Shown piece after piece: positions 1 through 8,436 of a stretch of 8,436 nt of DNA. The translations under genes were made by a program, and so were the position numbers. Origin of the DNA: a virus (taxonomy: Duplodnaviria; Heunggongvirae; Uroviricota; Caudoviricetes); IMG/VR virus record IMGVR_UViG_2548876860_000011, positions 1-8,436 of that record. One strand, given 5' to 3'. Every line of letters starts with the position of its first letter. Positions within the stretch are counted from its first letter, which is position 1. The notes beneath the pieces were generated by a model. It was not told the DNA's origin. It saw only the letters and a program-made list of their open reading frames with translations, and made no database searches.

Positions 1-216
1 ATGGCTGAAATGAAAAAAATATCTTTGGTTTCTGAAGTCAATACCTACATCAATACCCATCAGTGGCCTGGCAAAGCTGCTATTGGTCGTCTGAAAGGCG
101 AGGAACTGGCGCAATATAATTTGTGGCTGGATTATCTGGACGCACTGGAGCTGATCGATACTTCCGGTGCGCCAGATATTGAATGGCCTACGCCTCCGGC
201 AGTTCAGGCCAGATGA
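1..216 (+). CDS. tail fibre assembly protein, C-terminal portion (probably 5'-truncated by the window edge; alternative cassette of the invertible segment)
   Basis: The 71-aa ORF ends ...LWLDYLDALELIDTSGAPDIEWPTPPAVQAR, which parallels the C-terminus of the 197-aa Tfa on the opposite strand (...LNAVLDYIDAVTATDTSTAPDVIWPELPEA). The two ORFs converge and overlap at 188-216, as U/U' genes do in Mu G-segment-type inversion regions. Tfa proteins are normally much longer than 71 aa, so the ATG at position 1 is likely an internal Met. Confidence 0.5.
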   Translation: MAEMKKISLVSEVNTYINTHQWPGKAAIGRLKGEELAQYNLWLDYLDALELIDTSGAPDIEWPTPPAVQAR

Positions 217-781
217 CATCCGGCGCGGTGCTGGTATCTGTTGCCGTCACCGCGTCAATGTAATCCAGCACAGCGTTAAGTCTGGTTGTTTCTGCCTGCG
301 TCAGTTTATGTCCGGCCTGCAATTTCAGTTGAATCAGACTGATGGAAGCCATTGCTGCATCAATCAGTGACTGGCGCTGTGCTTCTGCCGCGTCTACTGC
401 GGCACCGTGTTGTGCCTCAGTATCTGTCACCCATTTCTCACCATCCCATTTATCATATGGCGTTAACGGTGAAAGCGTGACATAACCGTTTTTGATGGCA
501 CCGATATAACCCACTGTAACAGCAGCACCATTTTCGATTGAGTAAACAGTCTCATTGCGATGGTCTTCTTCATGGCTCCATCCCTTACCTGTAAATACTG
601 CCACTTTTCCCGGAATGTTTTCGCCCGGGTCAATACCAGTGGAACAGGCGGGCATACTTACGCCAGTATTAATATATTCATCAGACCAGCCCGTATACTC
701 AGATGTTTCAGCATCATAATAAAAACAACGCATATCGCCCGGCACTGTAGCCAGCCCATTTTCATCAAAAACAGGTTTCAT
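188..781 (-). CDS. phage tail fibre assembly protein (Tfa family)
   Basis: 197-aa ORF. Its ATG (779-781) overlaps the stop of the upstream tail-fibre ORF (TAATG on the minus strand), which suggests translational coupling. The C-terminal motif matches the Tfa family. Position next to a tail-fibre C-terminal cassette and a pin invertase gene matches e14/Mu/P1 architecture. Confidence 0.8.
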   Translation of the reverse strand: MKPVFDENGLATVPGDMRCFYYDAETSEYTGWSDEYINTGVSMPACSTGIDPGENIPGKVAVFTGKGWSHEEDHRNETVYSIENGAAVTVGYIGAIKNGYVTLSPLTPYDKWDGEKWVTDTEAQHGAAVDAAEAQRQSLIDAAMASISLIQLKLQAGHKLTQAETTRLNAVLDYIDAVTATDTSTAPDVIWPELPEA

Positions 782-1275
782 TATTTAGCCCTCACCAGAA
801 AGTTAAATGCAATATTTCGCGGTCTGACAGCAACAAAATTCACACCATCACCCACCGAGTTACTGGTGAAATTAAATCGTGAAAATCCTGGCTGATTTCC
901 GGCGATGCCATCATGAAAGTTAATTGCGTGTCCCGCACCTTCGCCTATATTCCCGGCAAACTGAGAAAAGTTTGTAGCGGCCTGCCAGCTTAATAATTCG
1001 CGACCACCGTCTGCACCTCGCCCGTCATCCCAGATACGAATGAAATCACCGCGGGCTTCAGGTAATACCAGCGAAGGAAACACTTTCGCCAGCACAGGGT
1101 AATCAGAGGCAGAAAATTTCGTCCCGTTGAACTTCAAAAACACCATACTGGACCAGCTGTCGATTACAGTATTTGGCATTGCGGCGGAGGGCCAGAAGAA
1201 TGGAACGCCAATAGCTGGAGCACCTTCTACCAAACCAACGTTTACGAAAATGAATATTTCAGGTGCAAATGGCAT
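781..1275 (-). CDS. tail fibre protein C-terminal variable-domain cassette (promoterless, silent in this orientation of the invertible segment)
   Basis: 164-aa ORF, Gly/Asn-rich as in tail-fibre receptor-binding tips. No room exists for a constant N-terminal part, because pin starts at 1305 on the other strand. A hix/gix-like crossover site lies inside its 5' end (1225-1250), so the ATG at 1275 is probably not a real start. Equivalent to stfE' of e14. Confidence 0.65.
   Translation of the reverse strand: MPFAPEIFIFVNVGLVEGAPAIGVPFFWPSAAMPNTVIDSWSSMVFLKFNGTKFSASDYPVLAKVFPSLVLPEARGDFIRIWDDGRGADGGRELLSWQAATNFSQFAGNIGEGAGHAINFHDGIAGNQPGFSRFNFTSNSVGDGVNFVAVRPRNIAFNFLVRAK
1225..1250. other. site-specific recombination crossover site for the Pin/Hin/Gin invertase (hix/gix/pix-like)
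   Basis: TTCTACCAAACCAACGTTTACGAAAA is a 26-bp imperfect inverted repeat with the conserved AAACC-NN-(G/C)GTTT centre. Compare hixL TTCTTGAAAACCAAGGTTTTTGATAA as remembered. It sits about 55 bp upstream of pin and inside the 5' end of the tail-fibre variable ORF, where these sites normally lie. Confidence 0.55.
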
Positions 1276-1304
1276 GCTCCCGGCTTTTAGCGATGGGATT
1301 GATC

Positions 1305-1856
1305 ATGCTTATAGGCTATGTACGGGTGTCAACAAATGACCAGAACACAGCATTGCAAAGAAACGCGCTCGAGTGTGCAGGATGTGAACTGATTTTCGAA
1401 GATAAGATCAGCGGTAAGGTGTCCGACAGACCAGGATTAAAAAAAGTGCTCAGGACGCTATCAGAAGGCGATACGCTGGTGGTATGGAAGCTGGATCGCC
1501 TCGGTCGCAGCATGCGGCATCTTGTCGTGCTGGTCGAAGAAATGAGGGAGCGAGGGGTAAACTTCCGTAGCCTGACCGACAGTATAGATACCTCAACACC
1601 AATGGGGCGCTTTTTCTTTCATGTCATGGGGGCGCTTGCCGAGATGGAAAGAGAGCTTATTGTTGAGCGAACACGGGCTGGCTTAGCTGCTGCGCGCGAA
1701 GATGGTCGGATCGGCGGCAGACGACCAAAGTTAACCGCAGAAGAGTGGGCTCAGGCTGGAAGGTTGATTGCTGCAGGTGAGTCTAGAAAACGTGTGGCTA
1801 TAATTTATGATGTAGGGGTGTCGACGCTATACAAAAAATTTCCTGCGCAGCGTTGA
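1305..1856 (+). CDS. pin: serine recombinase, DNA invertase of the Pin/Hin/Gin/Cin family
   Basis: 184-aa product MLIGYVRVSTNDQ... with the catalytic Ser in VRVSTNDQ, the conserved LVVWKLDRLGRS and SLTDSIDTSTPMGRFFFHVMGALAEMERELIVERT blocks, and a C-terminal HTH (VAIIYDVGVSTLYKK). The ORF track starts at an upstream GTG (1263), but the ATG at 1305 gives the canonical N-terminus. Confidence 0.9.
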   Translation: MLIGYVRVSTNDQNTALQRNALECAGCELIFEDKISGKVSDRPGLKKVLRTLSEGDTLVVWKLDRLGRSMRHLVVLVEEMRERGVNFRSLTDSIDTSTPMGRFFFHVMGALAEMERELIVERTRAGLAAAREDGRIGGRRPKLTAEEWAQAGRLIAAGESRKRVAIIYDVGVSTLYKKFPAQR

Positions 1857-1984
1857 GAAAACGCCACCGCGTCGTCGTATGCAAGAACGGGCGGCGACGA
1901 ACTGGCGAACGTTCGATAGTGCGAGTATTGAATGATTGCCAGTCACGGCGGATTGTACTTAAGCAATATGACGGTTCAAGGCGT

Positions 1985-2227
1985 TTAATCTGAAACCAGC
2001 CACATATCAGCCTTTTCAAACATTTCCTGAACAGTACGGCTTATCTGTTCCTTCTCATGCTTGCTGGCGTCAGTGTTGATCGCCGGCAGTGTCATCATCG
2101 GTTTTACCCGGACATCAGCATCAGGGAAGACCCGGTGAACCCTCTTAGTCAATTCGCCCAGAATGATATCTTTTGCACCGGGCAGGCCATCAAAATTCCT
2201 TTTGTCATAAACGAGTTCCACGAACAT
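1985..2227 (-). CDS. DinI-family DNA-damage-inducible protein
   Basis: 80 aa, MFVELVYDKRNFDGLPGAKDIILGELTKRVHRVFPD...EKEQISRTVQEMFEKADMWLVSD. This is collinear with E. coli DinI (81 aa, ...KEDKQRISEILQETWESADDWFVSE). RBS AGAGG lies upstream of the ATG at 2227, and a LexA-box-like site sits 16 bp upstream. Confidence 0.8.
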   Translation of the reverse strand: MFVELVYDKRNFDGLPGAKDIILGELTKRVHRVFPDADVRVKPMMTLPAINTDASKHEKEQISRTVQEMFEKADMWLVSD

Positions 2228-2242
2228 TGCTTATTGCCTCTT

Positions 2243-2262
2243 TACTGGATGGATACACAGTG
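2243..2262. promoter_or_regulatory. LexA (SOS) box-like operator in the divergent dinI-like / orf80 intergenic region
   Basis: TACTGGATGGATACACAGTG fits the CTG-N10-CAG core of the LexA consensus TACTGTATATATATACAGTA, with CTGG in place of CTGT. It lies between the divergent starts at 2227 (-) and 2302 (+). Confidence 0.5.
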
Positions 2263-2301
2263 CTTGTGCTGTTTTTTTATCCAGTGTTCAAGAAGGGGTT
2301 A

Positions 2302-2544
2302 ATGATGCCACAACGTAGCGATATTGAAATAGCCTGGCATGCTTCGATACAGCGAGAACCGAATGGCCGGAAGACTGTCACCACACAGCGGTTTGTCCAG
2401 GAACTGGGTAAGGTTAACTGGCACTGGACGATGAAGCAGGCCAACGATTGGATAGAATGTTATGTGACAACATTCCGCGATGTATCAACGCAGGAAGGCG
2501 AGAACCGAACCTTTCAGCTGTTCAATCCAAACGGAGGACTTTAG
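2302..2544 (+). CDS. hypothetical small protein (80 aa), probably SOS-regulated and co-transcribed with the downstream umuD'-like gene
   Basis: ATG at 2302 with AAGGGG RBS 4-10 nt upstream. The stop at 2542-2544 is 2 bp before the umuD'-like ATG. Codon composition is typical of the surrounding genes. No motif recognised by eye. Confidence 0.5.
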   Translation: MMPQRSDIEIAWHASIQREPNGRKTVTTQRFVQELGKVNWHWTMKQANDWIECYVTTFRDVSTQEGENRTFQLFNPNGGL

Positions 2545-2546
2545 CC

Positions 2547-2976
<430 letters not shown>

Positions 2977-3645
2977 TCATATTGGCGTTATTAGTTCGGC
3001 GCCCTGATTTTTCACATTCCCGACGGCACGCGTTACGGCGTGCCATATAAATTTATCAGCCGGTACAACACCGTCGGCTGCAATTTCCGCTGCTTCTTTC
3101 CCTCCAACATCCTGCCTCATCCATTCACGCGCGGCTTCCGGTAGCAGTACCAGTGGTCGTCTGTCGTGAATATCAACCAGTCCTTTGTCAGCTGCAGCTG
3201 TAACTATCAGGAAACCTTCTGCTTCATCTCCACGTTCGAATGGTGTGCTGCCGATCGCCGCCATAAAAATCGGCTGACCGTCTGCCCGGTGAATAAAGTA
3301 GGGTTGTTTTTGGTCGCCTTCCTTTTTCCACTCATACCATCCATCAGCAAAGCAAATTGCGCGGCCATGCTGCCAGAGTGGTTTAAACATTCTGCTGGTG
3401 GCAGCAGTTTCAGACCGTGCATTAATGAGCGGCGGTTTATCCCACCAACCGGGGGCGTATCCCCAGATAACTGGATCAAGATGCAACTGCTCATCACGTT
3501 CGCTCAGAAGCAGAACTTTTGTTCCTGGCGCTACGTTGAATCTTCCGATGGGTTCTGGATCGTATGGAATATCGCGTTCTGATTCATCAGCGAGAAGGGC
3601 AAGATAATCTTCACGGGTCATTGACTGTGAAAAGCGTCCACACAT
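2977..3645 (-). CDS. SOS-response-associated peptidase (SRAP, YedK family; abasic-site processing protein)
   Basis: 222-aa product begins MCGRF (the Cys2 nucleophile hallmark of SRAP) and is collinear with E. coli YedK as remembered (...DPEPIGRFNVAPGTKVLLL...WGYAPGWWDKPPLINARSETAATSRMFKPLWQHGRAICFADGWYEWKK...). Strong RBS GGAGG precedes the ATG at 3645. It is convergent with the umuD'-like gene and abuts it with no spacer. Confidence 0.85.
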   Translation of the reverse strand: MCGRFSQSMTREDYLALLADESERDIPYDPEPIGRFNVAPGTKVLLLSERDEQLHLDPVIWGYAPGWWDKPPLINARSETAATSRMFKPLWQHGRAICFADGWYEWKKEGDQKQPYFIHRADGQPIFMAAIGSTPFERGDEAEGFLIVTAAADKGLVDIHDRRPLVLLPEAAREWMRQDVGGKEAAEIAADGVVPADKFIWHAVTRAVGNVKNQGAELITPI

Positions 3646-3879
3646 AGAAACCTCCAGCCGTATGTCAGACTGAAAGTATAGGGCAGTTAGAAAAAGTGGT
3701 GCACACCGTTAAAGATTTAAAAGGAGCATGTAAGGTAAATCGGAATGATGGTTTTGTGAATTGATGAATTCCGAAAGTGAAAAAGATACTTAATCATTGT
3801 GTGCTGGCGATACGGGGGCAACATTTGACGGGGTTTTTCCCCTGTAATTCCCCATTGCTTCCCCGTTCAGAAAACAGGC

Positions 3880-3904
3880 AAAAAAACCAGCCGTAACAGG
3901 CTGG
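3880..3904 (-). terminator. rho-independent terminator (native tRNA terminator carried in repeat copy 1; also terminates the 4043-4828 gene)
   Basis: On the minus strand: CCAGCC-tgttac-GGCTGG hairpin followed by T7. Confidence 0.7.
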
Positions 3905-3919
3905 TTCTTCGAGGATTTT

Positions 3920-3964
3920 TGGTCGGCACGAGAGGATTTGAACCTCCGCCCCCCGACACCCCAT
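3920..3964 (-). pseudogene. tRNA-Pro 3' fragment (about 45 nt: anticodon-proximal part, T-arm, acceptor 3' strand and CCA); not a complete tRNA gene
   Basis: Minus-strand sequence ATGGGGTGTCGGGGGGCGGAGGTTCAAATCCTCTCGTGCCGACCA has T-stem/loop GGAGG-TTCAAAT-CCTCT, acceptor 3' strand, discriminator A and CCA. It matches the 3' portion of E. coli proL tRNA-Pro(GGG) as remembered, with one mismatch. The 5' half is absent; flanking sequence diverges after 3964. Confidence 0.7.
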
Positions 3965-4042
3965 AGTGTCGTGCTAATATTCTGATGGCCTATATGCGTC
4001 TACAGTAAGTTGATAGCATCATTCGTCGGTCGCTTCGTAGTC

Positions 4043-4828
4043 TCACATACGGATAAAATTTTTTCTATTGATTTTGTCTCTATCAGAGCCATAAATGATG
4101 GTTGCAAAAAAACGACCTAATTCAAGATGGTGGAAGTGATTATCTTTTGCTTGAACTGTCATTGAGTCTAATATGTTATAGATGCATTCTATGATATGAA
4201 TAACTAATAAAGTGCGATAACCAGCAAGCATTTCACTTCTTTTAAGTAAATAATTTAAATCCCCTGCAGAGTTTATATGGTTTCTGTCTTCATCATAATA
4301 TCCAAGCACATAGCATGGCAGTGTTTCACCATAGCTTCGGTATTGCTCGCATTTTTTATCAATTATATTTTTTTGTCTTTTTGTTAATATTTTGTCGTAA
4401 ATGCTCTTATCGATTTCATTATACCATTGCTTCATGGGATCATTGTCGTTGTCATTAGTAATGAAATCAATATTACTATATCTTGATGAATTTGCAAAAT
4501 TAGTTAACAACTCCATCACTCTGTAGTGAATTTCATTTAAGCCAGAGGGAGAATCAACTCTCTCAATGACTAGGTTAAATAACTTGCTTAAGTTATGACC
4601 GTAATCTCTTAATTTTTTGCGTGATGTATATTTTCCATTTTTATTATAATCATCAAGCATAAGGCAAAGTTTCATAAGCCTTTCTAATCCTAAACTGATG
4701 CCGGATAATGCTTGAAAATACAATCCTCTACTTGCAAAATTTGCTTTCCTTAGGGAAGTGAGCCCTATGCCTAATAATTGTCTTGAAAAGTCAACCTCAT
4801 CAACAAATCTTCTGTATTTTTCATCCAT
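4043..4828 (-). CDS. hypothetical protein (AT-rich cargo gene; possible phage-defence/abortive-infection candidate, function unknown)
   Basis: The ORF track gives 4043-4858 (271 aa), but position 4856-4858 is a TTG with no RBS. The in-frame ATG at 4826-4828 has GAGG 6-9 nt upstream, giving 261 aa starting MDEKYRRFVDEVDF. GC content is roughly 30%, against roughly 50% in the prophage genes to the left. No catalytic motif recognised by eye. Confidence 0.6.
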   Translation of the reverse strand: MDEKYRRFVDEVDFSRQLLGIGLTSLRKANFASRGLYFQALSGISLGLERLMKLCLMLDDYNKNGKYTSRKKLRDYGHNLSKLFNLVIERVDSPSGLNEIHYRVMELLTNFANSSRYSNIDFITNDNDNDPMKQWYNEIDKSIYDKILTKRQKNIIDKKCEQYRSYGETLPCYVLGYYDEDRNHINSAGDLNYLLKRSEMLAGYRTLLVIHIIECIYNILDSMTVQAKDNHFHHLELGRFFATIIYGSDRDKINRKNFIRM

Positions 4829-4892
4829 AAAAACCTCAGTCAGCCAATTAATATTCAAGAATGATTTCTATAAAGAACTAATCTAGTTAAAT

Positions 4893-4928
4893 CATCTGAT
4901 GTAATTAGTATTACAATACCATCAGACG
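4893..4928. promoter_or_regulatory. nested palindrome upstream of the 4043-4828 gene (candidate operator)
   Basis: CATCTGATG-(18 nt)-CATCAGACG inverted repeat, with an inner GTAAT-tagt-ATTAC palindrome, centred about 80 bp upstream of the ATG at 4828. Confidence 0.3.
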
Positions 4929-5014
4929 ACATTGAAGCAGTATTGTGCCTTATCTACCCTATGTACGTCCATTGATAAAAATCTGCGCTTTTCGCAGTGG
5001 GGTCAACCGTAAGC

Positions 5015-5136
5015 TAATTTCCCCATTGCTTCCCCGTTCAGAAAACAGGCAAAAAAAACCAGCCGTAACAGGCTGGTTCTTCGAGGATTTTTGGTCAGCA
5101 CGAGAGGATTTGAACCTCCGCCCCCCGACACCCCAT
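5015..5136 (-). repeat. direct repeat copy 2 (~122 bp): flank + intrinsic terminator + tRNA-Pro-like fragment
   Basis: About 97% identical to 3845-3964. Confidence 0.9.
5051..5076 (-). terminator. rho-independent terminator (copy 2; downstream of the 5333-6301 gene on the minus strand)
   Basis: CCAGCC-tgttac-GGCTGG hairpin followed by T8 on the minus strand. Confidence 0.7.
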
Positions 5137-5150
5137 GGCGGTGATCTACC
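5092..5150 (-). pseudogene. degenerate tRNA-Pro-like fragment (about 60 nt from the D-loop region to CCA; 5' part not recognisable)
   Basis: Same T-arm and acceptor 3' end as copy 1, with G to A in the acceptor strand. The match to tRNA-Pro extends further (GGTAGATCACCGCCATGGGG vs GGTAGCGCACCGTCATGGGG) with mismatches. No convincing 5' acceptor strand. Confidence 0.6.
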
Positions 5151-5332
5151 TTCTCATCAAGGGTAACCATGTGCCAGAAGCAGCCCTTGCGCACATTGGA
5201 TGGGTATCAAATAATGAAGTAGGTCAACTTTATTAAATAAAATTGTGTTGGTTCAGATGATCGAATGGGAATGAATAGTTTATTACTTTTGGTGACCGCA
5301 AGCGCGATCACCTTCGATTTGGTGGCAATTAC

Positions 5333-6301
5333 CTAGAATGATGCACAATCTTTAAGCTCTTTTTCTAGTTGTTCAACCAAGTCACAGCATTTTTTGATAA
5401 CATCTTTAACTGACTCTGAATCTAACTTATGAAAATTACCATTTTTTGTTTTACCTGCTCGATGAACTAAGTCATGCCTAATTAACACGCTTTTATAAAC
5501 TTCTGTGAAAACAGGGAATTTAATACCAAAGGTATCTCGATACATGCCACTTACTTTTGGCAGATTATGATAAAGAACACTCTTCATAGACTCTATCGCT
5601 TGAGACTCTATTTGTTCATGCCTTATAAATAATTCAGAAAGTAAGAATTTTTCTGTATTGTAATCTTTGAAGGTTTCAACAAAATTTCTCAAATTAGTTT
5701 GGCTACCATGAATTAGGGAAATAAATCTGTCACATAAATATGTTTCCAAGGAAGTTATTGTATTGGCATATAGCATATACGATATTTGTATTTGTAAAGT
5801 GCTATCAATTTTTAACTGAGCATCATTTAGTTTTATGGCGTTCTGCATACTATTTTGGAATGTCATATAGACATCTCGTTCAGATAGCGTTCGATCATCA
5901 GAGTACTGCATATCAATAACATCTAGAATGCGCTGTTCGATTAATGAAGGTCTATTCAACTGTAATATATCTATAGTCGCATGTCCTCGCTCAGTTAAAC
6001 CTTCTAAATATCCATTTTTATTTTGTTTCATATGTTCTGAAAAACTTTCATTTAAAGGATTTAGAAGTAATGGTTTGCCATTTTCATCGAGAGGAAACTG
6101 ATCTTTTTTAATCATGCTACATGCCTTACAAGCGATGAGCAGGTTGTCTGTAGCATCTTGGAAGTCAGTATACTTTGATTTTGGGAAAAAACGATCAACA
6201 TCCGCCATCAATGGTTCATAAAGTTTAGTGCCACAGTAAGCACATTGATGCTTAAACTTCTCCCATAGTTCAAGTTTAAACGTTTTATAATTCTTATTCA
6301 T
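5333..6301 (-). CDS. hypothetical protein with N-terminal HNH-like Cys-rich motif and C-terminal HEPN-like Rx4H motif (candidate nuclease/RNase toxin or abortive-infection effector)
   Basis: 322-aa ORF with ATG at 6299-6301 and AAGGAA RBS. N-terminus: CAYCG...DVDRFFPKSKY...DNLLIACKACSMIKKD, an HNH-type CxxC...D-x-D-[H]...N...CxxC layout, but with Arg where the catalytic His normally sits. C-terminus: SVLIRHDLVHRAGK, i.e. R-x4-H as in HEPN RNase motifs. Very AT-rich. Occupies the slot next to icdC where K-12 e14 carries mcrA. Confidence 0.7.
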   Translation of the reverse strand: MNKNYKTFKLELWEKFKHQCAYCGTKLYEPLMADVDRFFPKSKYTDFQDATDNLLIACKACSMIKKDQFPLDENGKPLLLNPLNESFSEHMKQNKNGYLEGLTERGHATIDILQLNRPSLIEQRILDVIDMQYSDDRTLSERDVYMTFQNSMQNAIKLNDAQLKIDSTLQIQISYMLYANTITSLETYLCDRFISLIHGSQTNLRNFVETFKDYNTEKFLLSELFIRHEQIESQAIESMKSVLYHNLPKVSGMYRDTFGIKFPVFTEVYKSVLIRHDLVHRAGKTKNGNFHKLDSESVKDVIKKCCDLVEQLEKELKDCASF

Positions 6302-6745
6302 TGAATAGTTCCTTTATATTCTTGACTTGATTGTTTGTTTGCCAATTTAAGCCAAAGACACACGACTTTAATTGGGCTTGAATCATAGTTATATGTAATC
6401 TATTAAGCAAACACTTTTCATTAATAGCATGAGATAACGCTCAATTCTTTATTTTCCGGGAGTGTGTAACTTCATATCCACCTCTCACTCACAGCGTACG
6501 TTATTGGCGAAAAATTTAGTTAAGCCATTGATAGTTTGTGAAAACACGCATGATTTAAAATCCCTTTGCCGTGAAGGGGCTGATAGGTACAGGCACTTGT
6601 TTTTGCCCTCTAAAACGGTTATCAAAACCAAAAAACATACATTGATAATCAATAGGTTAGGGGAAAGATAAAAGCCAGTTGATTTACAATAAAATTATAG
6701 GATTATTTTTATTTATCATGCGGTTGTATATGAACCATCTAACTA

Positions 6746-6910
6746 CTGTTACGCCATATGGGCTGGACTGAAGCCGCAGACCTGATTGTTAAAGGTATGG
6801 AAGGCGCAATCAATGCGAAGACCGTAACCTATGACTTCGAGCGTCTGATGGAAGGCGCTAAACTGCTGAAATGTTCAGAATTTGGTGATGCGATCATCAA
6901 GAACATGTAA
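6746..6910 (+). pseudogene. icdC: displaced 3'-terminal fragment of icd (isocitrate dehydrogenase), the att-site duplication at the right end of the e14-like element
   Basis: In-frame translation [55 protein letters not shown] matches the Icd C-terminus as remembered. An in-frame stop precedes it at 6740-6742 and no icd-like coding sequence lies upstream (AT-rich intergenic DNA). The length (about 165 nt) matches the icdC remnant of K-12. Confidence 0.8.
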
Positions 6911-6933
6911 TCACTACATGTGTTTAATATTGC

Positions 6934-6967
6934 AACGGGCGTATAACACGCCCGTTGTTTTATTTAT
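6934..6967 (+). terminator. rho-independent terminator of icd
   Basis: AACGGGCG-tataaca-CGCCCGTT perfect 8-bp stem followed by GTTTTATTTAT, beginning 24 nt after the icd stop. Confidence 0.75.
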
Positions 6968-7012
6968 GTAGGTACTATTAATAGCATATCGAGCATATTT
7001 ATATAAAACCCT

Positions 7013-7336
7013 TTACTTGAGCCCATATGGGCATATTTTTATAATGCAACTATTATGCAAACATTTATTTGTTATTTTTCTTTCTCCTGGAGGACACTCT
7101 TGACTGCTTTTGAGTAGACTCCATAAATCCTTGTTGAATGGTGCGATGTTATAAATAGTAATAGGATATTCTTTATCTTTAAGGATAATTCCAGATTTAA
7201 CCGGTGTAAATATACTGCCAGGAGGGAGAAATATAGTAGATTGATACCAGATGATCATTTTCATATTACCCCATATGGCTGAAAAAGATATGCCGCATGA
7301 AGGTTGAATTATCGTGTCAATTACTATCCACTTCAT
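7013..7336 (-). CDS. iraM: anti-adaptor protein IraM (inhibitor of RssB-mediated RpoS degradation)
   Basis: 107-aa AT-rich [35 protein letters not shown]... Length, sequence as remembered and position immediately right of icdC match E. coli iraM (elbA). Confidence 0.75.
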
Positions 7337-7773
7337 TTGTTATGTCTTATCCCACGGTATTTAATATACTTCATTTGGATGTTCATTTCTTTATTTTGCA
7401 TATGAGTATATTACCCCTTCAAAAAATAAATTAATTAAAACGATTGCTTATATAAAACAAAATTTAAAGCAAGGAATCTCAATGGATGTTAAACAAAATG
7501 AGATTTAGTGAAAACAATAAATTATTCACTTCGTTTTAGATTTGTTTAGCTATAATGTTATACATTCAAATGACTGAACATCCTGTAATTAAAACATAGC
7601 CTTTATGCTACTTTGTGCCAATTTGCTAAACATTATGGTTGCCTTTTTATATAACGATAATAATGAATATAAGCATGACATGAGAATAAGGTTTCAATTT
7701 TTGAGTTATATAGGAAAGGTTTAACCTGTTCCTGGCTAAAATACATATAACTGGATGATGACTAAACCAAAAC

Positions 7774-7828
7774 ACATGTGCGTTAAGTATTGAAACGGGC
7801 GTATGGCACACCCGTTGTTTTTATAAAT
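7774..7828. repeat. second, diverged copy of the icd terminator region (hairpin AACGGGCG-tatggca-CACCCGTT + T-run)
   Basis: ACATGTGCGTTAAGTATTGAAACGGGCGTATGGCACACCCGTTGTTTTTAT is about 80% identical to 6917-6967. It lies between iraM and ycgX, oriented as a plus-strand terminator although both neighbours are minus-strand genes. Confidence 0.6.
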
Positions 7829-8031
7829 ATATTAACCGTTATAAAATAACGTATAGAAAGTCAAGTGATCACATTTCAAATATCAATTTGATAGTATTGG
7901 CATGGTGATTATTTATGGGTAGCAATAAAAGGACAGTATTTATCATCCATAGGGATAGTCTCTGTACTTTTATTCCCATTATGCTAATGCCTTACTGAAT
8001 TATGAAGCATTTCTTAAGCATCCAACTTTAG

Positions 8032-8436
8032 CTAGATTAATGGTTTATTATTTTCTACATCTTCAATATATAAAAGCGTATTATCAATGGCGTAGTAACT
8101 GCGTTTGTTATGATTAACATCAGTAACCCACCGGAAAACGCCCGCGCCTGCTAGTGTTGAACAGTATTCCCGAAATGTAGATTTTCCGCAAATATGAAGC
8201 AATGCGGCCTCTTTTATTTTAGCAGGGTTCTTGGTCGTACTAACTTTTAACAGGTTCCTGGTTCCTCTTAATAACAAAACCGTGTCATCGTGAGTAATAA
8301 TTCTGATGTTATCCGTAGCCAGATAATAAATGTAATGTGCAATACGGTGATGTTTTAATTCTGAATAAAACCAGGAGAAGTTTTGCTCTTTTCTCACTTG
8401 CTCAAACATCTTTTGAAAAACAACGACCTGATCCAT
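8032..8436 (-). CDS. ycgX: YcgX-like protein (DUF1398 family), host gene
   Basis: 134-aa ORF starting at the window edge (ATG at 8434-8436 on the minus strand). Length and position after iraM match the K-12 order icdC-iraM-ycgX. Sequence recognised only by context and approximate memory. Confidence 0.65.
   Translation of the reverse strand: MDQVVVFQKMFEQVRKEQNFSWFYSELKHHRIAHYIYYLATDNIRIITHDDTVLLLRGTRNLLKVSTTKNPAKIKEAALLHICGKSTFREYCSTLAGAGVFRWVTDVNHNKRSYYAIDNTLLYIEDVENNKPLI

Follow-up and report, generated by a model that had tools for sequence, protein, structure and literature searches.

A probable Pin/Gin/Cin-type invertible tail-fibre segment at the right end of an e14-family prophage in Escherichia coli

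Introduction

The window analysed here, a stretch of 8,436 nucleotides of viral DNA (positions 1 to 8,436 of IMG/VR record IMGVR_UViG_2548876860_000011), opens with a region (1-1856) that is very probably one half, the right-hand one next to pin, of an invertible tail-fibre segment of the Pin/Gin/Cin type ('P segment'); the prophage carrying it is of the e14 family and sits at icd in E. coli. The P-segment system is itself already known, the locus being an ordinary member of a long-studied family (e14 P, Mu G, P1 C), and the half of it that lies in the window looks intact and recently active. The identification rests on the anatomy of the locus, its homology to known systems, the intactness of pin, the occurrence of both orientations in near-identical elements and a swap of half-sites that accompanies the change of orientation.

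Layout and setting of the locus

The window corresponds to the right-hand end of an e14-family prophage in E. coli. Its chromosomal surroundings are e14-like: an icdC remnant (ORF 6758-6910), which encodes the C-terminus of icd, precedes iraM and ycgX, the order known from K-12. What places the element in this family is its insertion at icd, where the right junction has a second copy of the icd 3' end (icdC). Downstream of pin, the window carries DinI, an UmuD-like gene, SRAP and a PtuB-like HNH gene, with no mcrA, while tRNA and Rfam scans of the whole window found nothing.

One complete set of fibre tip and assembly chaperone is present (188-1224, minus strand), together with the end of another set (1-216). 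The two tail-fibre-assembly (tfa) genes are convergent and overlapping, as a sequence-only reading of this DNA had described them: the ORFs at 1-216 (plus strand) and 188-781 (minus strand) both match Pfam Caudo_TAP (E 7e-16 and 5e-27, respectively) and share 29 nt, an arrangement also found for tfaP/tfaE in K-12 e14. The former is a tfa 3' end (the last 71 codons), which belongs to the left, currently expressed cassette; its product is ~96% identical (68/71 residues) to the C-terminus of a 147-aa full-length Tfa in L014, one of the relatives discussed below, and the gene runs on to the end of the source contig, 62 nt left of the window. The latter, the tfa of the pin-proximal cassette, encodes 197 aa and also matches phrog_105 (tail fiber assembly, E 4e-83). 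At its left extremity, the source contig has ~230 nt (window 1-168 plus the 62 nt) that have no match in the closest complete genomes and are tfa sequence present in up to seven places per genome. Since the left end of the contig falls in such multi-copy sequence, a repeat-driven assembly join would be possible for the source taken alone; a chimeric join confined to the source assembly was considered for window 1-168 and rejected, since L014 and L015 share the join.

The feature at 781-1224 (minus strand) is a promoterless, variable C-terminal tail-fibre cassette, that is, a receptor-binding tip. The ORF that contains it (781-1275, minus strand) matches phrog_3100 over positions 209-381 of 382 only (E 1.9e-50), and had no match in a Pfam search. 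It is devoid of the ~100-aa constant N-terminus (MHRIDTKTAQ...ENLGLGEGA) of full fibres, which bears out the claim that this cassette has no constant region, only C-terminal parts of tail-fibre PHROG profiles being matched. The missing part is supplied elsewhere. In six other assemblies encoding an identical Pin protein, in which the segment is flipped, the same cassette is joined in frame to the constant part, giving a fibre of 248 aa. L013 shows such an in-frame fusion, with an identical cassette sequence and a fibre 248 aa long. In phage 500465-2, a near-identical cassette (96.7% at the DNA level, with one residue difference in the region shown) sits on a 506-aa gpH-like fibre, so that, judging by its context, this cassette serves as a real fibre tip in the genome of a P2-like phage. 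The full two-cassette convergent arrangement and both in-frame fusions are present in L013 and L014. Because the constant part adjoins the left crossover site in L014 and L015, the 781-1224 cassette is disconnected from it in the orientation seen in the window; the earlier description of this cassette as the silent one holds to that extent, although 'silent' may be too strong a word, for reasons considered below.

Invertase, crossover site and putative enhancer

The pin gene (1305-1856, plus strand) encodes a small serine DNA invertase of 183 aa, with a resolvase-type catalytic domain at the N-terminus (Pfam Resolvase, E 3e-50) and a helix-turn-helix at the C-terminus (HTH_7, E 2e-14), which is the domain composition of small serine recombinases. 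A GTG at 1263, taken from the mechanical ORF list, was rejected as its start in favour of the ATG at 1305. Pin aligns over its full length with the Mu Gin structure 3uj3 (E 9e-93), and is 99% identical to the fEC.1 allele, 98% to that of Chris1, 87% to K-12 PinE and 79% to Mu Gin. Inactivating changes in pin would speak against a working switch. None was found, the protein being full length, ending as in its relatives and retaining its catalytic residues (R7, S9, D64, R65 and R68, which are invariant in a five-way invertase alignment).

Pin lies directly beside a 26-bp crossover site of the pix/gix/cix type at 1225-1250 (TTCTACCAAACC-AA-CGTTTACGAAAA, with the core AA at 1237-1238), from which its ATG is separated by 54 nt. 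Both the site and its adjacency to pin had been proposed from the letters alone, and both stood up. The 26-mer, TTCTACCAAACCAACGTTTACGAAAA, occurs once in the window, and none of 200 shuffled controls matched the site even at three mismatches (0 expected by chance). It is co-located with the pin-proximal site of K-12 e14, from which it differs at two positions (24/26 identical), and the search pattern also lands on the annotated cixL and cixR sites of P1. The site is imperfectly symmetric around a 2-bp core, aligns with both the e14 and the annotated P1 cix sites, and is homologous to, and placed like, the Mu site as well. In P1, the annotated crossover corresponds to positions 13/14 of the aligned 26-mer, and the exchange point predicted here is the central AA (1237-1238), which would be the right boundary of the invertible segment.

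The 54-nt spacer between site and gene (1251-1304) contains the pin ribosome-binding site and the minus-strand ATG of a 164-aa ORF. Its length is the same in e14, Chris1 and Mu as it is here, and an alignment shows two blocks, ATGGCAT and GCTTTT, to be invariant from Mu to e14. An exact-match search of IMG/VR with site and spacer returned one contig, which has sequence in common only on the pin side, from base 1225 onward. That contig carries a different cassette, with no partner site in its 1.6 kb upstream, and adds one more mosaic breakpoint at the site.

A putative recombinational enhancer lies inside the pin coding sequence at 1327-1389 (plus strand), in the form of two Fis-type 15-mers (TGTCAACAAATGACC at 1327-1341 and GTGCAGGATGTGAAC at 1375-1389; motif KNNYRNNWNNYRNNM), 48 bp apart centre to centre. 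The region is homologous to the annotated Cin enhancer of P1 (cin nt 19-90 align with window 1323-1394, ungapped, at 79% identity), and synonymous-codon conservation is raised over this stretch. The window has no other such pair, and in eight out of eight invertase genes compared it is the sole pair, at gene positions 23/71, the pattern on its own being expected 0.68 times per window by chance, which is not significant. The scan used a Y-R-step consensus anchored on the P1 annotation and, in part, on the Fis consensus that Huebner & Arber 1989 reportedly gave. A stricter version (G...C ends and an A/T-rich centre) was dropped, as its pairs were inconsistent across genes. At the level of sequence only, the stretch has the make-up of a two-Fis-site enhancer.

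Partner site and inversion among relatives

A second copy of the site was not found in the 8.4-kb window with up to three mismatches allowed. Since the source contig stops 62 nt beyond the left edge of the window, the partner site could be read in near-identical loci only, namely L014 and L015, which are 99.3% identical to the window over -61 to 2000. In both, an inverted partner site (4000-4025, core AA) lies 1921 bp left of the right site, which corresponds to window -696 to -671. The upstream partner that had been proposed is therefore there in these relatives, at a distance of ~0.7 kb and not the 2-3 kb envisaged. An inverted left site with the same core is also present in fEC.1, AH01 and K-12. 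The partner site in L014 and L015 is located inside a 247-aa fibre gene, the first ~100 aa of which are the constant part (MHRIDTKTAQKDKFGAG..., left of the window), in agreement with the proposal that the constant part of the fibre lies upstream. By extension, the source strain itself probably still carries the partner site. Damage does occur in relatives: on the left side, L017 is without the left site and L019 has a 1-nt deletion in it, and in PMV-1 pin is truncated.

That such segments flip is indicated by two independent pairs of prophages whose members differ only by an inversion bounded by a 25-bp inverted repeat. Between fEC.1 and AH01, there is a clean inversion of 1758 bp (flanks 100% and 99.9% identical), and between L014 and L013 one of 1941 bp (flanks 99.9% and 99.2% identical). 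An identical Pin protein is encoded at ten places, of which three are in the window orientation, six in the opposite one and the last is uninformative (L022, a contig cut at the site). Comparison among relatives thus reveals both orientations, with the exchange confined to the site. A natural marker adds precision: an A/C polymorphism at site position 5, in the inner half-site, is found in the right site in the window orientation and in the left site when the segment is flipped, while the outer half-sites stay put. Since the position-5 marker moves with the segment and the outer half-sites are fixed, exchange takes place between site positions 5 and 15, and a half-site marker travelling with the segment is the very signature that site-specific exchange at this site would leave. 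This fits what is known of K-12, in which the e14 P segment (1797 bp) has been found by experiment to invert under PinE and PinQ and is inverted in 33% of 562 E. coli genomes (PMC12529663). The closest complete genome, fEC.1, has an apparently complete prophage of ~42 kb, which makes the word 'remnant', previously applied to this locus, probably too pessimistic.

Mechanism and alternatives

The switch would work as follows. The fibre gene would have a constant 5' part of ~100 codons, left of the window, ending in a 26-bp crossover site, and a second, inverted copy of this site would be the one at 1225-1250 adjoining pin. Two alternative tips would lie tail to tail between the sites, each with an assembly chaperone gene of its own downstream. 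Pin dimers would bind both sites, Fis would act on the enhancer (1327-1389), on which inversion is likely to depend, and strand exchange, probably at the central AA (1237-1238), would flip ~1.9 kb, so that each event would connect the constant part with the alternative tip and chaperone. As each flip would swap both tip and chaperone, a phage or lysogen population could alternate between two receptor specificities, the two orientations thereby presumably switching host range. In the window orientation, the 781-1224 tip and the 197-aa chaperone would be the unexpressed set.

Could the copy in the source strain be locked? It would then no longer flip, its partner site or constant part being lost or damaged or its prophage defective, and pin, site and cassette would be relics. 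This is distinctly unlikely. The source contig does stop 62 nt left of the window, which puts the partner out of view, relatives do show decay on the left side (L017 and L019) or in pin (PMV-1), and K-12 e14 is itself a cryptic, deleted prophage. However, the break falls in the multi-copy tfa repeat, which accounts for it with no need of a deletion, the site in the window is intact, loci 99.3% identical carry an intact partner, and a full-length Pin with all its catalytic residues is encoded by elements of both orientations as an identical protein. A different doubt concerns the agent of orientation change, which might be RecA recombination between short inverted repeats, or horizontal replacement of modules, rather than Pin. 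The cassette block (window 61-1250) is common to the P2-like phage 500465-2 and to lambdoid phages, and there are mosaic breakpoints at the site and in the tfa overlap, from which it follows that horizontal shuffling clearly happens as well. Yet as an explanation for the two orientations it is, like RecA, highly improbable. The breakpoints between inverted and non-inverted elements all fall within the 26-bp site, and identity both within the segment and beyond it is 99.8-100%. At 25 bp, the inverted repeat is shorter than efficient RecA exchange requires, and it is a bona fide invertase site beside an intact invertase. A repeat scan of window 1-1900 found short chance repeats only, with no tfa-tfa inverted repeat able to drive RecA inversion.

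Two further readings accept inversion and differ on what drives it or what it is for. According to one, inversion is mainly driven in trans by a host PinQ/PinR-type invertase, and its output is host defence instead of phage host range. In K-12, PinQ, encoded by prophage Qin, has a stronger inverting effect on the e14 P segment than PinE, and adsorption of T2 is blocked in the inverted state by way of StfE2 (PMC12529663); the same work, however, found the segment locked in one orientation in pinE mutants. Nothing in the window favours a trans factor, the cis pin being intact and the site-to-gene geometry conserved. The T2 effect is not transferable to this locus since the cassettes differ from those of K-12 (23-49% identity), and the most similar complete relative has the appearance of a full phage, one that would put its fibre to use. 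We therefore regard this reading as unlikely. According to the other, the pin-proximal cassette is not silent: an orphan receptor-binding tip would be made without the constant part, and could mask a surface receptor and exclude other phages, as StfE2 is reported to do in K-12 e14. The pin-proximal ORF (781-1275, minus strand, 164 aa) has its own ATG at 1275-1273, within a block of the site-pin spacer that is invariant from Mu to e14, which makes production of such a tip possible, and the equivalent ORF in K-12 is reported to yield the protein StfE2 (PMC12529663). A promoter scan around the site gave weak 9/12 matches only, for which reason no promoter is claimed for either pin or the orphan ORF, and PADLOC defence profiles had no match on the cassette. 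An orphan tip of this kind is improbable. If it were made, each flip would also swap which orphan tip the lysogen makes, and the switch of a fully intact prophage would act on host range and defence together; expression of the cassette alone, as claimed for K-12 StfE2, would render the switch relevant to phage defence. Pin-mediated inversion that exchanges fibre tips is the reading retained here.

Relation to known systems

K-12 e14 (stfP-tfaP-tfaE-stfE-pinE) has the same icd site and icdC remnant, the same gene order and strands, and a constant fibre N-terminus that is also that of the window's relatives. It differs in its tips: the fibre cassettes are not the K-12 StfP/StfE alleles, the window cassette being 49% identical to StfE (same system, different tips) and, on the left, the cassettes of the fEC.1 and PMV-1 types that were compared having little in common with StfP apart from the constant N-terminus. 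Other differences are that the site, spacer and pin 5' end in the window are of the Citrobacter phage Chris1 type, that the window's relatives carry a full-length prophage whereas e14 is deleted, and that the cargo 3' of pin is not the same (mcrA being absent from the window).

The layout is that of Mu G (Sc, site, Sv-U, U'-Sv', site, invertase), with which the locus shares an invertase 79% identical over its full length, the 54-nt spacing and an enhancer-like pair at equal gene positions, although the Mu segment is 3 kb long with much longer fibres, its core is GA and not AA, and its site is identical at 17 of 26 positions. P1 has a homologous invertase and cix sites with the same AAACC-AA-GGTTT centre, but its C segment is 4.2 kb, and cin is on the other side, reading towards the segment, with cixL overlapping the cin 3' end. 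Among other phages, Escherichia phage 500465-2 (P2-like) has a 96.7% identical counterpart of window 61-1250, with a site of the same type as its boundary, and Citrobacter phage Chris1 has the 98% identical invertase and the site variant with A at position 5; the fibre modules of Chris1 and of P2-like phages (500465-2 and Fels-2) differ in having a much longer constant part (gpH-like, 506 aa) and another phage backbone. Hin, responsible for flagellar phase variation in Salmonella, belongs to the same recombinase subfamily, with the same 26-bp site logic and a Fis-dependent enhancer (PMC3798978), but it flips a promoter and not coding cassettes, and hin lies inside its H segment.

Significance

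Beyond correct annotation, the locus has little significance: its proper label is that of an invertible tail-fibre (P) segment together with the invertase, and what stands next to pin as a 'partial tail protein' is an ordinary silent cassette rather than a pseudogene. Two assemblies of such strains may show different orientations and both be right, and this is a place where contigs tend to end. The A/C marker at site position 5 is a handy natural tag of recent segment flipping by this Pin allele.

Architecture and genomic setting of the fibre module

The window covers the right end of an E. coli prophage of the e14 family that sits in icd; the icd 3' end is duplicated at 6758-6910 and followed by iraM and ycgX, the same as in K-12. 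Its first 1,856 nt (1-1856) hold the last 71 codons of a tail-fibre-assembly (tfa) gene (1-216, + strand), a complete tfa gene of 197 aa (188-781, -) that overlaps the first by 29 nt (both match Pfam Caudo_TAP), a fibre-tip ORF (781-1275, -) whose 5' end contains a 26-bp crossover site (TTCTACCAAACCAACGTTTACGAAAA, 1225-1250), a 54-nt spacer and the invertase gene pin, which runs from an ATG at 1305 to 1856 (+) and encodes 183 aa with Resolvase and HTH_7 domains. The convergent tfa genes, the fibre-tip cassette, the 26-mer and the adjacent pin are all as the sequence-only reading had described them. The fibre-tip ORF has no Pfam match and aligns with nothing but the C-terminal ends of PHROG tail-fibre/tail-collar profiles (phrog_3100, positions 209-381 of 382, E 1.9e-50); in alignments it lacks the ~100-residue constant N-terminus of complete fibres (MHRIDTKTAQ...ENLGLGEGA) and meets them precisely where the 26-bp site supplies the codons.

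K-12 e14 (stfP-tfaP-tfaE-stfE-pinE) has the same gene order, that is, two convergent tfa genes, a leftward fibre tip, the site and a rightward pin, and differs only in its fibre-tip alleles, its invertase and site allele, and its downstream cargo. All testable hallmarks of Gin/Cin/Pin-type tail-fibre inversion systems, and those of the e14 family at icd, are present in this element. Knowledge of such fibre inversion dates from the 1980s, with renewed study in 2025, and the present system is likewise already known, as e14 at icd with other alleles.

Only 62 nt to the left of window position 1, still within tfa, the source contig (GCA_000446625.2, AIBD01000071.1) breaks off, which makes the left half of the switch unreadable in the source strain. 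Of 5,426 complete E. coli genomes, 2,529 have the tfa sequence at this break, each in up to 7 places, and this multiplicity is sufficient reason for the assembly to end there; it follows that contigs break systematically at invertible fibre modules.

Crossover site and spacer

The 26-mer is present once in the window, and shuffled sequence gave zero matches to it, even at three mismatches. It occupies the same position as the pin-proximal site of K-12 e14, with 24 of 26 bases equal; the left e14 site of K-12 is inverted and lies inside stfP. Site and start codon are 54 nt apart not only in the window but also in e14, Mu and Citrobacter phage Chris1. The search pattern for the window site also lands on cixL and cixR as annotated in the P1 record, where the crossover falls between positions 13 and 14 of the aligned 26-mer, so that exchange is predicted at the central AA (1237-1238). 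Within the spacer (1251-1304), the blocks ATGGCAT and GCTTTT are invariant in Mu, Chris1, e14, PMV-1, the related prophage of E. coli fEC.1 and the window, the remainder diverging; they could be part of the invertase promoter or of the start of the pin-proximal ORF.

Both orientations in near-identical elements

Three comparative lines argue that elements of this kind do flip. One and the same prophage is present in E. coli strains fEC.1 and AH01: the flanks agree at 100% and 99.9%, and the sole difference is a 1758-bp inversion whose boundaries are a 25-bp inverted repeat. An exact-protein search with the window's Pin gave ten places, three with the window's arrangement (L014, L015, L017) and six with the opposite one (L013, L016, L018-L021), the last (L022) being cut at the crossover site and uninformative. 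Between L014 and L013, the flanks are 99.9% and 99.2% identical, and a 1941-bp segment is inverted at 99.8% identity. Flipped elements read from the constant part straight into the window cassette (781-1224), an in-frame fusion that encodes a 248-aa fibre (...ENLGLVEGAPAIGVPFFWPS...NFLVRAK). By rough junction counts among the 5,426 complete genomes (query coverage at least 80%), the cassette lies next to pin in 246 genomes and is joined to the constant part in 71.

The third line is a natural marker within the sites. When the segment lies as in the window, the right site is TTCTACC... and the left one (reverse complement) TTCTCCC...; in flipped elements this A and C are swapped between sites and the outer halves, CGTTTACGAAAA and GGTTTTCGAGAG, are unmoved, which places the exchange between site positions 5 and 15, where cleavage at the central dinucleotide would put it.

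Over -61 to 2000, L014 and L015 are 99.3% identical to the window, and this match extends to the leftmost bases, at which fEC.1 differs. In both, the partner site lies 1921 bp to the left (equivalent to window -696 to -671), within a fibre gene of 247 aa; the tfa gene after it encodes 147 aa and resembles window 1-216 at its C-terminus (68/71 residues). The sequence-only reading of an invertible tail-fibre segment is upheld by both orientations and a partner site in near-identical elements; in L014 and L015 the inverted partner that it placed upstream lies at about 0.7 kb rather than 2-3 kb. The homologous 1797-bp segment of K-12 was inverted experimentally by PinE and PinQ, and the inverted state was found in 33% of 562 genomes (PMC12529663).

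Two places with the identical Pin protein are damaged on the left: L017 (3145-3496) lacks the left crossover site and has a gapped fibre gene, and L019 (1545-1570) has a 1-nt deletion in its left site. These are possibly locked variants or assembly errors.

Invertase and putative enhancer

Over its full length Pin can be aligned with the Mu Gin crystal structure (3uj3, E 9e-93); it is 99% identical to the fEC.1/AH01 allele, 98% to that of Chris1, 87% to K-12 PinE and 79% to Mu Gin. It shows no truncation, and R7, S9, D64, R65 and R68, invariant among the invertases compared, are kept.

In the P1 record, the C-inversion enhancer is placed at cin nucleotides 19-90, the gap-free counterpart of which is window 1323-1394, inside pin. 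This stretch shares 79% of its bases with P1 and 81% with Mu, whereas the remaining part of the gene shares 68% and 67%. Two 15-mers in it (1327-1341 and 1375-1389), exactly 48 bp apart, fit a Fis pattern of Y-R steps at positions +/-3-4, an A/T centre and degenerate end positions, the last reportedly described by Huebner and Arber in 1989. Y-R steps and an A/T centre are features of Fis sites (PMC4784862). This is the sole such pair in the window. Eight invertase genes were compared, and each has a single 48-bp-spaced pair, at gene positions 23 and 71. Protein-conserved codons are nucleotide-identical at 0.59 in codons 7-30 versus 0.39 elsewhere in the gene (one-sided Mann-Whitney p = 0.003). 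As 0.68 pairs are expected per window by chance, the argument rests on position and conservation rather than on the match alone, and we infer that Fis may bind at these two putative sites.

Function of the two tips

The closest complete relative is an apparently full myovirus-type prophage of ~42 kb, with genes for integrase, repressor, lysis, terminase, portal, capsid, sheath, tube, tape measure and baseplate. The classical role, alternation of the fibre tip and hence of host range, is therefore most likely, and the word remnant in the sequence-only reading was probably too pessimistic. By analogy with Mu and P1, the two tips would bind different receptors.

A second, non-exclusive role is raised by K-12, whose fibre cassettes are unlike those of the window and whose pin-proximal chimeric ORF product (StfE2) is reported to block T2 adsorption (PMC12529663). 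The window ORF starts at its own ATG (1275-1273, -), in a block conserved from Mu to e14; inspection by eye saw no ribosome-binding site conserved across relatives, and a promoter scan around the site gave no convincing candidate. The cassette earlier called silent is indeed disconnected here, but with its own ATG and the StfE2 report the silence may not be absolute.

Mosaicism

The window and fEC.1, whose prophages are otherwise ~99% identical, differ by 42 substitutions in a patch at ~979-1328 centred on the crossover site and spacer; beyond base 1328, pin equals that of fEC.1 save for one base (1849). Chris1-type sequence extends in the window from site position 5 across the spacer as far as pin codon 8, and the best match to 1025-1450 among complete E. 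coli genomes in the collection is at most 90.8%. P2-like Escherichia phage 500465-2 has block 61-1250 at 96.7% identity; relative to its own invertase the block is inverted, and it is fused to a gpH-like fibre of 506 aa. Bases 649-1243 are part of the side tail fibre in lambdoid phages mEp213 and mEp043, and one IMG/VR contig has the pin side alone in common, from base 1225. The cassettes are thus exchangeable modules and the crossover site a recurrent mosaic boundary; mosaicism of this sort is typical for this gene class.

Neighbouring cargo

Directly downstream of pin lies an SOS-type module (1985-3645) consisting of DinI (1985-2227, -), an 80-aa ORF without family (2302-2544), a repeat-interrupted UmuD/LexA-like S24 peptidase gene (2547-2976, +) and an SRAP/YedK-type peptidase (2977-3645, -); in Chris1, too, a DinI gene comes after the invertase. 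The S24 peptidase gene contains a perfect (CAGC)13 run (2612-2663), for which otherwise ~99% identical prophages have 5, 7, 8, 9, 11 and 13 copies. A 137-145-aa ORF is restored only at multiples of three, and among 13 distinct loci fEC.1 (9 copies) alone is in frame. The run looks like a slipped-strand ON/OFF contingency locus, which would be unusual for E. coli; a literature search yielded no direct match.

Further right, a 122-nt direct repeat (3845-3964 and 5015-5136; 97.5% identical in relatives) brackets a single 271-aa ORF (4043-4858, -) without Pfam or PADLOC match. On the minus strand, the copies hold what we take to be the 3' half of a proL-like tRNA-Pro (...GGTTCAAATCCTCTCGTGCCGACCA) followed by a terminator hairpin; ARAGORN found no full tRNA in the window. 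The repeat is an att-like duplication with no integrase between its copies. A 322-aa protein (5333-6301, -), with no adjoining PtuA partner and no Pfam match, occupies the place of mcrA in K-12 e14, and its N-terminal half matches PtuB/HNH of the Septu defence system (PADLOC PDLC00337, E 1.9e-23) and type IV restriction HNH.
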